This document shows, piece by piece, positions 1,612-6,569 of a DNA stretch of 37,078 nt (positions are counted from its first letter, which is position 1; each line of letters starts with the position of its first letter). Source of the stretch: Nitrospirota bacterium (GTDB lineage: Bacteria > Nitrospirota > Nitrospiria > Nitrospirales > Nitrospiraceae). Below the pieces are notes generated by a model that was not told the origin of the DNA, did not search any database, and saw nothing but the letters and a program-made list of their open reading frames with translations. Location of the stretch: the NCBI GenBank assembly GCA_963703955.1, contig CAVPGK010000002.1, positions 1-37,078 of the forward strand, in the 5' to 3' direction. Position numbers and translations under genes: made by a program.

Positions 1612-2565
1612 ATGACGCTTTCGGTTTCCGCCTACGATCATCTTCGGCATCGCCTACACCTCGCGTTGGCGTTGAATGCGGTGATCATTCTGGCCGAATT
1701 TGTAGGCGGTTGGTTGATCAACAGCATGGGGGTGATGAGCGACGCGGGCCACAACCTGATCGATCAGGGGTCGCTGTTCCTTGCGTTATACGCCCACATT
1801 CTGGCCCGACGGCCGGCAACGGAGGCACGGACGTTCGGCTATCACCGTGCAGGCATCGTCGCCGCCTTCATCAATTCGTGTGTGCTGCTGCTGACGGCGT
1901 TGGCGATCGCCGTTCTGGCAGGGAAACGGATCATGGATCCGGTTCCGGTCGCAGGCGGATGGGTTATCGCCATCGCGCTCCTCAGCTTCGTCGCCAACCT
2001 CGCCATTGCCCAACTCCTGCAACAGGGCGCTCAAGATGACCTGAACATTCGGAGCGCCTTCTGGCACATGCTGGCCGATGCCTGGGTTTCCTTGGGCGTC
2101 GTGGCTAGCGGCGCCGCAATTCTATTGACTCGCTGGTCGGTGCTGGATCCCCTGGTCAGCCTGGTGGTCGTCGGGGTCATCATCAAGGGCGCCTGGCCGC
2201 TCTTGAAAGAGTCCATGGAGGTGCTCCTCGAATCCACGCCACCCGGCATCAAAACCGCCCACGTGGTCCAGGCGATTGAAAAGATCCCCGGCGTCAAGAA
2301 TGTGCACGATTTGCACATCTGGGCCGTCGAGCCTCGGCTGGTGATGCTCAGCTGTCACGTGATGGTGGACGGGGATGATTCGCAACTGACGGATGAGCTG
2401 CTGCGGACCATCAGGGGCTGCGTGGCCACCGAGTTCGGCATAAAGCATCTCACCATCCAAATGGAAACACAGTGTTGCCATCCGGATGCGGTGCACTGCG
2501 ATTTGAACCAGTTGACGGGAGACGGCGCGCTGCACAGGACGCAGCACACCGAACTGCAACGCTAA
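1612..2565 (+). CDS. Cation diffusion facilitator (CzcD/ZitB-like divalent metal efflux transporter)
   Basis: SDAGHNLID, TFGYHRAGIVAAFIN, NIRSAFWHMLADA, VHDLHIW and HLTIQME motifs; six hydrophobic segments. Confidence 0.93.
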   Translation: MTLSVSAYDHLRHRLHLALALNAVIILAEFVGGWLINSMGVMSDAGHNLIDQGSLFLALYAHILARRPATEARTFGYHRAGIVAAFINSCVLLLTALAIAVLAGKRIMDPVPVAGGWVIAIALLSFVANLAIAQLLQQGAQDDLNIRSAFWHMLADAWVSLGVVASGAAILLTRWSVLDPLVSLVVVGVIIKGAWPLLKESMEVLLESTPPGIKTAHVVQAIEKIPGVKNVHDLHIWAVEPRLVMLSCHVMVDGDDSQLTDELLRTIRGCVATEFGIKHLTIQMETQCCHPDAVHCDLNQLTGDGALHRTQHTELQR

Positions 2566-3118
2566 CCTCTCGCCTCACGACTCTCGCCGGCTCTGAAGAC
2601 GGGCCAGCGTATCAGTAGTAAGGCCGCCCCGACCCCCAGCAATGCCCCGATGACCCAGCCGCCCACGACGTCGCTGAAGAAATGCGCGCCCACGTACACT
2701 CGCGACACTCCGATCACGGCAACGAGGGGCCAGGTGACCCACCCGGTCGAGGGATACAGCACCTGGGCAAAAGGCGGCGGCCGCGGCAGTGTTCAATGCG
2801 TGATTGGAAGGGAAGCTATACGTACCGCCGCATCCGGCGAGCTCATGAATACCCTCCAGCACCCAACAGGGCCTCGCTCGTTCCACAAGGAGTTTGACCT
2901 GCGCCCCCACCACATCACAAAGCAGCACGAGTGTGGTCAGCACGGCAGCACCGACCAGGGCTTCGCGTCTGTCGATCCAGAGCCAATATCCGAACAGACA
3001 GAGGCCAGGGACCAGTAAGCTCTCCGGGCGCGCGAGCCCCAGCATGGCCCAATCCAATGCGGCTGACTCGCTCAGCCAGCCCGTTGATGGCGTGGAATAT
3101 GTTAAGGTCCCAGTTCAC
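2562..3118 (-). pseudogene. PAP2-family phosphatase (undecaprenyl-PP/lipid phosphatase-like) split by two apparent +1 frameshifts; pseudogene or sequencing error
   Basis: Three consecutive ORF pieces: MNWDLNIFHAINGLA; LDWAM...KLLVERARP...SFPSNHA; QVLYP...SRVYVGAHFFSDV. Together they give PAP2 motifs C1, C2 and C3. Shifts are near 3066-3072 and 2765-2772. Confidence 0.85.
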
Positions 3119-3207: not shown

Positions 3208-3645
3208 CTATTGCGTGCGGAAGTGGATACGTACCGTCAGTTCCCCATCAATCAGTTCATCTCCCCGCATCTGCGGATCGAAGGTCCACTTGTTGAGCGC
3301 CGCAATACCTGAGACCGTGAGCTCCCGGTGCTTGGCCGGTTCCAGCACGACTACCGTGACTTTGGCTTCTTTTGAAACCAGCATCCGGGCCTTCATCCAA
3401 TCATCGATCACCTTACCCTCCAACGCCGGCGGGATCGCCGGCCAGGGCGTGGACTTCGGCACCGGCCCCAATTGCTGGTCTTTGTTGAGCGGAAGCCCAT
3501 GAACATGAACCTCGGGCACGACCACGATATCTTCGTCGTGGTCCGACTGATGCGTGGCTCGGTCTCCCTCCGCTGTCCCGCCATGAACCGGCCACAGCCC
3601 AATAACAACGGCGAGAATCCAAGTGGAACCGTGAAGCCGGTTCAT
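3208..3645 (-). CDS. Small exported protein with TonB C-terminal-like domain
   Basis: ATG 3645 lies 13 nt after the receptor stop. It has a hydrophobic N-terminus. The C-terminus (ARMLVSKEAKVTVVVL...AALNKWTFDPQMRGDELIDGELTVRIHF) fits the TonB_C pattern (W-x-F-x-P). Confidence 0.75.
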   Translation of the reverse strand: MNRLHGSTWILAVVIGLWPVHGGTAEGDRATHQSDHDEDIVVVPEVHVHGLPLNKDQQLGPVPKSTPWPAIPPALEGKVIDDWMKARMLVSKEAKVTVVVLEPAKHRELTVSGIAALNKWTFDPQMRGDELIDGELTVRIHFRTQ

Positions 3646-3658
3646 CCGACACTCCCAA

Positions 3659-6101
3659 TTAGAAGAACCATTGCACGCGCCCAAAGAACGACCGCGGTGC
3701 GCCGGCGTGTGCGATACCCAGGCCGATGCTACCTTCACCGCTATTGTAAAAGTAGTTCCGATCAAACAGGTTGATGATATCAAACCCCAGCAATAGCTTT
3801 TGTTTATGCCACGGGAGCGGGATCACATGAGTAATGGAGGCATTATAGATCGTATAAGACGGTTCATGCGAAGAATTCGTCTTGGCTCCCTCTGCCGCCG
3901 TGCGCAAGCCATAGCCATAGAGCATCTGCCCGGTGATCGTTGTCCGCTCCAAAAACTTATAGCTGAGCACTGCCGAACTCGTCATGAATTGCGAATGATC
4001 GCAGAAGATACCACCCGGGGAATTGATGTCATTGATTTCCTGTTGGTCCAACAGAAATTGACCTGACTGCAACCCGAACCCCTTACATTGCCCCCAGGAC
4101 ACATTGCCCCGCCCGGTCAGGTTGTCGGTGAACTGAACCTTTAGGGCTCCATCAATCCCGCGCTGCCAACCATTATTGAAAGCAAAGAAATTGAGCAACG
4201 GTGTGCTCCCAAACTGCCCAGCATCAGAAAGAAAGTTCGCCAACTTGTAGTATCCAGCCACTTCTAATGTGGCGTACCGGCTGATCGCATGGTAGCTGCC
4301 AACCTCAAAGTAATGCGCCCGCTCAGCGCGCGGTCTGAAGCCGGTCGGATCGTCTGGTTCGGCAGTGGTCCCTGTCGTATTGAGATTGATGAACGCGATC
4401 TGCTCCACGTTGGGCGGCGTGAACAGGCGACCGTAATAGGCGTGGAAGACATTCGACTGATTGTACTTGTACGTGACGCCGACCCGGGGACTGACCTGTC
4501 CTTCGTTGTAGAACCCCTGGATCTGGTCGAACCGAAGACCCAGGTTGAAGGTCCACTGATCTGTCAGGCTCCACTGATCCTGCACCCAGAACTCTTCGCG
4601 CCATTGGATGTTCCGATTCGAGGCCTCGCGGGTGATGGCCGGACCAACGGGGAGGTCTGTGTCCGGATCGATGTCGAAGGCGAAGAGTAGCGCCGTGTTG
4701 TTGGCATTGGTGTAATCGATCTGAAACCCCGTTTTCACCAGATGTTGGTTGTTCGGCACCCAGGTGTAATCGAGTCGGACACCTCCGGAATAGGCCCGGC
4801 GCTGCTGGCTGGCTGTTTCAGCGCTGTCCGCCTCGGGCGCATACGCCAGTGCGTTCGATGGATCGGTCTGAAAGTTCGCATAGCCGGCCCGGAAGTAGCC
4901 GCCCAGACTGAAAAAGTTCGACGCATTGACATCATGCCGCCAGACCAGTTGCGTATATTGGTTGTTCTCTTTTTGGAACTGATTGACAGCCTGAGAGGTC
5001 ACAGGGGTGAAACTTGGATCTCCCGTCTGCAGGAGTGCGAGCACGTCCTGGTTCACCTCCAGGTTCGGGTTCGTTGGGATTTGGTACTTGGCCACGGACC
5101 CCAAGAAGATCCAGCTGAAGTTATTGTTATTGTCGCGTTGGTAATCTCCCCTGAGATAGGTGTTGTTCTTCTCGCTCTGGTTATGAAAATTCGTCCTGCC
5201 CAAAGTGGGCGGCTCGATGCCCCGACTCGTGGTCACATAGCTGTTCAAAACATAGTAGCGAAACTTCTCCCCTACCGTCCCGCCGTATTCGAACGAGGGA
5301 TTCACTGTTTCATTCGAACCGCCGAACATCTGCAACGACCCGAATCCTGGTTTGGTTCCGCTCTTGCTGGTGATATCCAGAATAAGAGCGGTCTTGTTGC
5401 CGTACTGCGCTTCCATGCCACCCAAGATGATATCGGCGCGTTCCCAGGCCCTCGGTGGCACAATGTCGGCAAACGCCCCGGTGACCGTATCGGGAATGGG
5501 AATCCCGTCAATGCGAAACTGCTGATTGGCATGGTCCTGCCGGATGTGAGTTTGCTTCAGGGCTCCGTAGACCACGCTCGGCACGGTCAGGAGTACCTCG
5601 TACACTTCGTTGTTGTTGCCCTTCGGCAGGATTTCGACATCTTTGCGGCTCAGCTGGTAGGTTGTGCTCGACGCCTTGTATTGAATCGCCGGCAGCGTGG
5701 AAACAATTTCCAATGCGATCTCTTGTGTGAGGGCCAGCGTCAGGGTGACCGGGGCGCGGCTTTTCCGTTCCGACCCTAACCACCACATACTCGCTCTTGA
5801 AGGTGTCTTGAACCGCACTGACGGAATACGTTCCTTCGCTCGGGGCCGTGACGGAAAATTCTCCGGCCTGGTTCGTGACGCCTTGTGCCACGACATTGCC
5901 TTCCTGGTCGCGAATCTGAACAATCGCCTGATCGACTCGCCGTAGGTCCTGGTTCTGAACCGCTCCGGTGATCGTTCTCGCTGTGACAAAAGCCGCTGGT
6001 TCCTGGGCCAGGACCGACTGCTGTTCCTGAAACAGTATTCCAGTGACCCACAGCATTGCGCAGACGAACAAACGGGACCACCTTACCCATGAGCGCCTCA
6101 T
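3659..6101 (-). CDS. TonB-dependent outer-membrane receptor with N-terminal carboxypeptidase-regulatory-like domain; one apparent +1 frameshift near 5757
   Basis: RBS GGAGGAG and ATG 6101; signal peptide; ITGAVQN...TNQAGEFSV...GTYSVSA domain. The frame switches at EKP|APVTLTL. Plug motifs FRIDGIPI and GGMEAQYGNK follow, then a beta-barrel (SPRVGVTY, INLFDRNY) and C-terminal QWFF. Confidence 0.9.
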
Positions 6102-6196
6102 GATCTCCTCCGATCATCAAGACGGGTCGTTGACGCGCGCGAGCGACGGCACCGTCAAGCAGACGTGCCGGCCGACGGCGGTGACTGTCTCCGAGA

Positions 6197-6529
6197 TTAG
6201 GAAAGCGGAGGCGCGCGGGGTGGACCGACTGTGATGATGCGAGGGGAAACCAGCAGAGGGATCGAAGGACTTTCATGCTGCTCGACGGCGAAAGTGGAGG
6301 CGGCAGTGGGCACACCGGCCAGCAGGGAACTGCCGGCATGGTGCTGGACCCATTGGCATAGGTCGGAGTCGGAATGCTGATGGTCGTCGTGATCCGCCGC
6401 CGCCAAGGCATGGTGCACTTCTAAGGCCACGGCGAATGGAGAGAGCGCCAATAGGATAATCACCAGCGTGAATGCTCCCGCGCCGGGGAGGGACCGGTAG
6501 GACGGAGTCTGAGGAAGACGAAGTATCAT
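6197..6529 (-). CDS. His-rich exported leader peptide with C-terminal RAPP motif (DUF2946/CruR/CutF-like uORF)
   Basis: Signal-like segment FTLVIILLALSPFAVA, then LEVHHALAAADHDDHQHSDSDLCQWVQHH, a low-complexity linker and the C-terminus GPPRAPPLS. It ends 95 nt upstream of the TonB-dependent receptor start. Confidence 0.8.
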   Translation of the reverse strand: MILRLPQTPSYRSLPGAGAFTLVIILLALSPFAVALEVHHALAAADHDDHQHSDSDLCQWVQHHAGSSLLAGVPTAASTFAVEQHESPSIPLLVSPRIITVGPPRAPPLS

Positions 6530-6539
6530 GAGCGGGGCG

Positions 6540-6569
6540 CTTCTACCACACCCATTCAGAAGTTGTCAA
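6540..6569 (-). promoter_or_regulatory. Putative sigma70 promoter for the RAPP leader/receptor unit
   Basis: On the - strand: TTGACA (6569-6564), 18 nt ending in TGTGG, then TAGAAG (6545-6540). This lies 10 nt before ATG 6529. Confidence 0.5.

Follow-up and report, generated by a model that had tools for sequence, protein, structure and literature searches.

The window, that is, the whole stretch of 37,078 nucleotides analysed from contig CAVPGK010000002.1 of a Nitrospirota bacterium (assembly GCA_963703955.1), carries on its minus strand a 110-aa open reading frame (6529..6197) composed of an export signal, a His/Asp/Cys site, a linker and a terminal RAPP-Leu-Ser-stop, which stands in front of a TonB-dependent receptor gene. 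The sequence-only reading had pointed to a signal-like segment ending in AVA, seven His and one Cys, a 40-residue linker, RAPP two codons before the stop and a receptor 95 nt downstream, and all of these are present: the His residues are H39, H40, H47, H50, H52, H63 and H64 and the single Cys is C58, exactly 40 residues separate H64 from R105, residues 105-108 (codons 6217-6206, minus strand) form the RAPP arrest motif followed by Leu-Ser-stop, and the receptor ATG lies at 6101. The His/Asp tract is equally real and reads DHDDHQH, with one Asp fewer than in the peptide first quoted for it. The hydrophobic signal segment (residues 17-35, 6425..6481, minus strand) ends in P-F-A-V-A and has a Kyte-Doolittle peak of 2.5; from the hydropathy and the conserved AxA, a Sec/SPI cleavage after A35 is probable. 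Residues 36-64 (6338..6424, minus strand) make up the candidate metal site, with invariant H39, H40, D48, H50, H52, D56, C58 and H64. The AlphaFold model of the leader consists of a helix at 15-45, a loop, a helix at 54-71 and a linker of low confidence (mean pLDDT 65). The leader and its region gave no match in Pfam (E 0.01), NCBIfam or Rfam, and a search of the ESM Atlas returned unnamed Nitrospirota clusters together with one cluster carrying DUF2946 on 16% of its members.

On the 5' side, a -35-like TTGACA (6564..6569, minus strand) stands about 40 nt before the leader ATG, which implies a very short 5' UTR; TTGACA occurs within 60 nt upstream of the leader in 50 of 79 loci, and a generic promoter scan of the window made no call at this site. 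On the 3' side, the 95-nt intergenic region (6102..6196, minus strand), whose hairpins are predicted folds only, contains the receptor Shine-Dalgarno sequence GGAGGAG (6111-6105).

The receptor (3659..6101, minus strand; N-terminal CarboxypepD_reg domain by Pfam) is divided into two ORFs by a +1 frameshift near 5756, and is followed on the same strand by a protein with a TonB C-terminal domain (3208..3783; true start probably near 3650, the orthologue in locus L006 matching TonB_C weakly) and by a PAP2 phosphatase (2562..3057) with a +1 frameshift near 2769. A CDF transporter gene (1612..2565, plus strand), whose closest named model is ZitB, below its cut-off, is convergent and lies outside the operon. 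Since the extra base at 5756 is absent from close-relative contigs in 4/4 sequencing runs and that at 2769 in 3/4, the fourth run having no cover there, and since the receptor is intact in relatives (800-816 aa), both frameshifts are probably assembly errors. These single-base insertions, together with a fur-iron-ABC locus present twice in the genome (contigs C8 and C20), are signs of assembly error or contamination.

The same gene order recurs widely. The TonB-dependent receptor follows the leader in all 76 loci with enough sequence, the intergenic region measuring 81-174 nt across loci; a TonB-like gene comes after the receptor in 56 of 57 loci and PAP2 in 51 of 53, a ZitB-like CDF gene is nearby in 31 of 45, and tatD lies upstream in 42 of 49. 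Comparison of the receptor with solved structures, by sequence and by fold, yielded no more than generic matches to TonB receptors (10-15% identity), none of which indicates a substrate, and the plug of the receptor model is poor (pLDDT 63). Of the other three TonB receptors of the genome, one belongs to a cobalamin (B12) cluster, one adjoins NikR and one follows a CxWxC leader. As regards the rest of the window, positions 11746-37073 encode, by Pfam, a serine acetyltransferase, IspD/IspF, a PIN-TRAM protein, a DegP-like protease and FBPase/aldolase, as well as a long rhamnose/mannose glycosyltransferase cluster.

Conservation of the leader and its relation to known arrest peptides

A protein search yielded 155 leader homologues, the best 120 of which were analysed, a selection made partly on similarity that includes RAPP itself. 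Among these 120 of 155, R[AG]PP is kept in every member (113 RAPP, 7 RGPP), the Cys-to-Arg spacing is always 47, without indels, and L42, Q59, W60 and Q62 are invariant together with the eight residues listed above for the metal site, H47 (53/120) and H63 (111/120) being the variable His. At the signal end of the same 120 sequences, P31 is found in 120, A33 in 115 and A35 in 112. Mean modal-residue conservation is highest in RAPP (0.99) and the metal tract (0.90), intermediate in the signal region (0.72) and lowest in the linker (0.43). A genome scan seeded only with patterns of the N-terminal tract gave 332 loci, and in the best 80 of these, ranked by full-length similarity, RAPP and the spacing of 47 were present in 80/80, with R-x-PP placed 2-3 codons from the stop in 79/80; by their record titles the 80 loci are from Nitrospira/Nitrospirota, except for three from uncultured bacterium records. 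A conserved His cluster, spacing and RAPP beside a diverging linker is thus what the comparison returned, as had been anticipated. RAPP is otherwise strongly under-represented in Nitrospirota proteomes, with a mean frequency bias of 0.14 (source data of PMC12992588).

When a profile of the leader was run against 251 genomes of the phylum, it was found in 46/46 members of the own family (Nitrospiraceae), in 10/22 and 1/1 members of two sister families and as two weak matches elsewhere; a profile search of 1.84 billion representatives gave 94 proteins. Judged from these sequence comparisons, the leader is very probably a real and strongly conserved arrest-type leader of Nitrospirales. In the genus designated g11, 12 of 16 genomes keep the receptor, with no leader detected. 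The leaderless receptor loci of this genus (L224-L236) show a non-coding motif, TTCATG...TTGAAAA...CACGAAA...GTGTATAA, about 50-130 nt before the receptor start in 12 of 13 cases, which is probably a promoter that also contains an operator; in the remaining case, L230, a Zur-type box takes its place.

The HMM search against DUF2946 that the sequence-only reading had proposed gave the leader as the best match in the whole genome (15.3 bits), and against PF11162 it scored 16.7 bits (E 0.013), below the gathering cut-off of 23.7 bits; 66 of 102 family members match PF11162 at E up to 1, the best at E 7.4e-5. As in the DUF2946 protein CruR, there is a C-terminal RAPP, 46 residues intervene between Cys and RAPP where CruR has 45 (a gap of about 45, +/-1-2, being characteristic), and an export signal, seen in the hydropathy and AxA, is combined with the first position in a metal operon and a long intergenic region. 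The CXXC is lacking, as the window protein has one Cys and any C-x-x-C occurs in just one of the best 120 of 155 homologues. Because there is no CxxC and the score falls below the Pfam cut-off, the leader is, by profile and alignment, a divergent DUF2946 relative and not a canonical DUF2946 protein. CxxC-type RAPP leaders do precede the same receptor family in five distant Nitrospirota genomes and in Bradyrhizobium, where the leader carries a DUF2946 annotation and scores 29 bits; profile alignment with these CxxC leaders (67.5%, against 0.7% for a reversed control) places C58 on their second Cys; the paralogous CxWxC and CAWLDH leaders align with the main leader at 94% and 98.5%, respectively. 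The earlier proposal that CxxC is replaced holds, none being conserved, and its C-x4-HH site gives way to a conserved site H39/H40-H50-H52-D56-C58-H64.

CruR of Bordetella pertussis (Bp2923, PF11162; PMC9426467) resembles the leader in its export signal, metal site and approximately 45 residues to RAPP, as well as in the long intergenic region, the TonB-dependent importer downstream, the predicted polarity (stall = ON) and a C-rich 3' end fitting Rho control. In CruR, the spacing of 45 residues from CXXC to RAPP matters for regulation (PMC9426467), and the ribosome has been shown to arrest with its P and A sites on the two Pro codons (PMC12992588). The leader differs in having a His/Asp tract and, in place of CxxC, a single Cys corresponding to the second one, in its zinc context, copper being the metal of CruR, and in the predicted masking of the downstream ribosome-binding site (RBS) by its own last codons. 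CutF of Rhodobacter capsulatus (PMC9973294; bioRxiv 2025.02.05.636593) shares the signal and a stem-loop over the downstream RBS; copper induces its stall and thereby switches on a detoxifying oxidase, whereas the targets of the leader are importers and the probable metal is zinc. CruR can do without its signal, which CutF requires (bioRxiv 2025.02.05.636593). The leader falls within the rule-based definition of CutF-like proteins (bioRxiv 2022.11.11.516240), being shorter than 150 aa, with an N-terminal signal, PP in the last 15 residues, a same-strand neighbour within 1000 nt and a Cys/His site, and departs from strict CutF in showing C-Q-W-V-Q and RAPP instead of CxxxC and PPP, CxWxC being found only in the paralogous leaders. 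Therefore, the first description as a CruR/CutF-like RAPP leader with a non-CxxC site is upheld by the comparison, except for its portrayal of CutF, which has CxxxC and PPP, as a CxxC/RAPP protein. Three supplementary text files of PMC9973294 contain no Nitrospira entry, the protein list and logos apparently being placed elsewhere.

With SecM, ApdA and ApdP, the leader shares an export signal and, as predicted, RAPP-type arrest, and in SecM the stall opens the downstream RBS, as is proposed for the leader; it differs from them in possessing a metal-ligand tract and in being followed by a receptor or a porin-ZnuA operon, not by Sec/YidC components or another protein-localisation gene. A published class, the RAPP/RGPP uORFs before TonB receptors (PMC12992588, Fig. 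4 class), contains orthologues of the leader from Nitrospira genomes: these account for 27 of 30 source-data rows inspected, all before TonB-dependent receptors and given as hypothetical proteins, and some other rows precede receptors annotated as zinc-regulated. The passages of PMC12992588 on RAPP uORFs neither assign a metal to these orthologues nor describe a motif, a link to Zur or an RNA-based mechanism.

Predicted masking of the receptor ribosome-binding site

Folded from RAPP onward, the window sequence pairs the last leader codons, with those of RAPP in the predicted anti-RBS strand, to the Shine-Dalgarno sequence and start codon of the receptor; folding of the window region alone gave z -1.4, which is not significant. 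For tests across loci, seven of 81 were dropped for short or unassignable downstream sequence, leaving 74, which were dereplicated to 49; as the loci are related, the counts overstate their independence. In a first and cruder masking test on the 74 loci, the Shine-Dalgarno sequence was paired with the RAPP region at P >0.5 in 36, and the mask cut this pairing by >0.2 in only 18. In the 49 dereplicated loci, the mean energy needed to open the receptor RBS was 15.1 kcal in the free RNA, 8.4 with the mask of a stalled ribosome and 11.1 after synonymous recoding; it exceeded the mean of the synonymous controls in 46/49, and the stalled-ribosome footprint lowered it by >2 kcal in 43/49. The window itself is weak in this test, with 13.0 vs 11.2 kcal and 7/20 controls as strong.

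The same behaviour was found in nine distant leaders whose downstream genes differ from the receptor, being a porin gene in five, for which a downstream ORF within 210 nt was required, four CxxC leaders lying outside this limit: the mask produced a drop of at least 5 kcal in 9/9, and in 5/9 no control reached the real opening energy. The CxxC leader of Bradyrhizobium gave no excess of RBS energy, 9/15 controls being as strong. Moreover, the codon for P107 is CCT in 57 of 74 loci against a background of 13%, so that CCUCC is written into the 3' end of the leader; this 3' end also shows an excess of C over G above the synonymous control in 74/74 loci, and Rho is present in the genome. The last codons of the leader are thus predicted, by these folding models, to mask the receptor RBS.

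Gene context and the probable metal

As the receptor has no informative solved relative, the metal was judged from gene context. The earlier suggestion of a metal other than copper, namely Ni, Co or Zn, is narrowed by this context to zinc, which is probably the sensed metal, the receptor being a probable zinc importer on the same sequence-based grounds. Six plasmid homologues of the receptor were examined out of 19 matches, at about 30% identity. The one from Paraburkholderia lies among zur-like, zigA (above its cut-off) and zinc-ABC genes, that from Methylocystis is accompanied by genes for an AztC-like protein and a Zur-like regulator, that from Polymorphobacter adjoins nikR, merC and a Zur-like regulator, and a true DUF2946 leader precedes the sixth. 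Judged by eye, five of the six have upstream boxes similar to the proteobacterial Zur sites in Table 1 of PMC4176598, an automatic pattern having flagged only one. Within Nitrospirales, the same leader heads a porin and ZnuA/AztC-AztA-AztB operon in six loci of other members of the order, and COG0523-WD40-COG0523-ZIP genes stand behind the CAWLDH paralogue. A Zur-linked subfamily of COG0523, encoded beside WD40 and znuABC, has been described (PMC2770081), and gene classes of the COG0523, ZIP and znuABC type are typical Zur targets (PMC6103462).

A possible regulator has been found in a third Fur-family clade, present in 7/31 relatives, whose gene is preceded in 7/7 by a TGCAA-N5-TTGCA palindrome which fits the Desulfovibrio Zur box ATGCAACnnnGTTGCAT (PMC545781, Table 5), a box that is itself a prediction. 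The Zur-type box precedes the main leader in 10 distant loci, one zur-then-leader operon, and zur-then-CAWLDH operons in 6/6; all 10 genomes with a boxed leader encode the third Fur-family regulator, which was found in 29 of 120 own-family genomes. Its best NCBIfam matches are Bacillus Fur and PerR, below cut-off, so that it is not called Zur by these models, and in the tree it joins proteobacterial Zur only through very long branches. There is no Zur-type box within 250 nt in 108/119 main-leader records (partly redundant), the window included; the own genome has no perfect copy of TGCAA-N5-TTGCA and no detected Zur-like gene, an absence which is unproven because the genome is 82% complete, and a palindrome scan of 57 promoters gave no family-wide operator. 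A complementary distribution, in which a genome would have either Zur or the leader, was considered and ruled out, as many genomes have both and some of g11 have the receptor with neither detected. Next to tatD, loci L139, L141, L174 and L178 present a zur-like gene, a leader, COG0523/WD40/ZIP genes and then the main leader and receptor, an arrangement which is a probable ancestral zinc island; unlike in these islands, the promoter of the window abuts the leader directly.

The best-surviving alternative, although unlikely, retains the arrest-release switch and changes the metal sensed or imported to Mn, Co, Ni, Fe or Cu. In its favour, His-only CutF-like leaders preceding HupE/UreJ genes have been proposed for Ni/Co (bioRxiv 2022.11.11.516240), the ABC binding proteins also match Mn (MntC) models and the COG0523 proteins match CobW, the Polymorphobacter homologue adjoins nikR, and the Zur assignment derives from context and a predicted box. 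Nevertheless, ZigA, the Zur-like regulators, the best matches to AztABC/ZnuA, ZIP, COG0523-WD40 and the Zur-type boxes all point to zinc, this genome has distinct receptor genes for Ni and for B12/Co, and the CxWxC leaders head other operons. Two such leaders, His-rich, with RAPP and a C-to-R spacing of 46, are encoded on contig C6 (L083:2562-2969 and L083:6687-7091), one in front of a TonB/BNR/thioredoxin operon, the other in front of a second TonB-dependent receptor; they are possibly the copper counterparts. On contig C17, the genome also contains a separate AztC/ZnuABC-type operon (L246:632-3418), with no RAPP leader and no perfect Zur-type box detected. Furthermore, a 175-aa ORF on contig C23 (L084:4974-5501), with a hydrophobic segment, HxH and a C-terminal RAPP, has no Pfam match and no close downstream ORF, and is possibly another leader type.

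Proposed mechanism and its alternatives

The preferred reading, to which a probability of about 0.6 is given for the full mechanism, is that of a cis-acting arrest leader coupling zinc supply to a zinc-importing receptor, together with its TonB partner and PAP2. The operon would be transcribed from a promoter just 5' of the leader, and the ribosome would stall at RAPP by analogy with CruR; in this position it is predicted from folding to cover the strand that pairs with the receptor Shine-Dalgarno sequence and start codon, so that the receptor would be translated; a C-rich Rho site, predicted from base composition, might be shielded as well. The distance to P107 at the stall is 43 residues for H64 and 49 for C58, against the 30-40 residues or so that the ribosome tunnel holds, so that the metal site would already have emerged. 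When zinc is sufficient, Zn would bind the His/Asp/Cys site, 43-68 residues from the stall and outside the tunnel, folding or export would pull the chain, and with release of the stall the hairpin would reform and the importer be turned OFF; at low zinc the stall would persist and the importer stay ON. This polarity is proposed because the targets are importers behind a repressor-type box. Sensing might take place in the cytoplasm, like CruR, or in the periplasm, like CutF. Where a Zur-type repressor exists, the leader would act as a second check; roughly three quarters of the own family, this genome included, have no detected Zur of this kind, and there the leader may be the only zinc control on the receptor.

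A different explanation, with a low probability, is that of a constitutive stall or a Sec-export monitor coupling receptor translation to translation of the leader or to secretion capacity, the His tract being structural or vestigial. Signal-bearing RAPP leaders are classically Sec/YidC monitors (PMC12992588) and the signal region is conserved (0.72), which would suit such a role; against it, the metal ligands are the most conserved part after RAPP (0.90), stand at a fixed distance from it, and the genes downstream serve metal uptake, not sec. A reversed polarity as in CutF, where periplasmic metal binding induces the stall and turns the downstream genes ON, is highly improbable: the conserved signal peptide, the RBS-masking hairpin and one copy in front of a CDF-like exporter agree with it, yet nearly all targets are importers or starvation genes behind a repressor-type box, which metal induction would oppose. 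Equally remote is a secreted periplasmic metal-binding peptide with an incidental RAPP, for despite the cleavable-looking signal and His-rich mature N-terminus, R-x-PP is invariant at a fixed distance from Cys, 2-3 codons from the stop and rare in these proteomes, the codons used favour pairing with the RBS and the model of the linker is of low confidence.

A broader version of the zinc-sensing leader is put forward tentatively, at somewhat less than even odds. According to it, the leader would be a zinc-sensing arrest peptide whose RAPP codons double as the anti-Shine-Dalgarno strand, paralogous leaders would be tuned to their metals by the Cys/His motif (CxWxQxH and CAWLDH for zinc, CxWxC for others), and the leader would have outlived Zur as the sole zinc switch in most Nitrospiraceae. 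In the papers found, copper is the metal for which sensing by an arrest leader has so far been shown (CruR, CutF), other metals having been proposed only. A literature search, with partial coverage of subscription papers and supplements, in which a prior metal assignment may exist, found no zinc-sensing arrest peptide and no discussion of this leader family. The family offers a sharply defined test case: its non-CxxC site is invariant, the 47-residue ruler is free of indels, an RNA switch is predicted and the Zur-type context is independent, and natural controls are at hand in the paralogous CxWxC leaders, the CxxC leaders on the same receptor family, and lineages with and without Zur. It bears on how the binding of a metal by a nascent chain leads to release from a RAPP stall, and on how metal selectivity is encoded; in addition, it gives a probable role in zinc import to a near-universal receptor of Nitrospiraceae (45/46 genomes), which is relevant to the physiology of nitrifiers and comammox organisms.

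Two loci of a single genome, G228, concern the range of targets and the fate of the leader. At L247:6375-9019, an intact leader copy is followed by genes for an outer-membrane-like protein of 318 aa and a His-rich CDF-like transporter (assigned by inspection), and such a position before an exporter speaks against a role in uptake only. At L137:8467-8779 the receptor gene is missing and the syntenic leader is frameshifted, its RAPP reading RAFP, which suggests decay after loss of the target, or a sequencing error.
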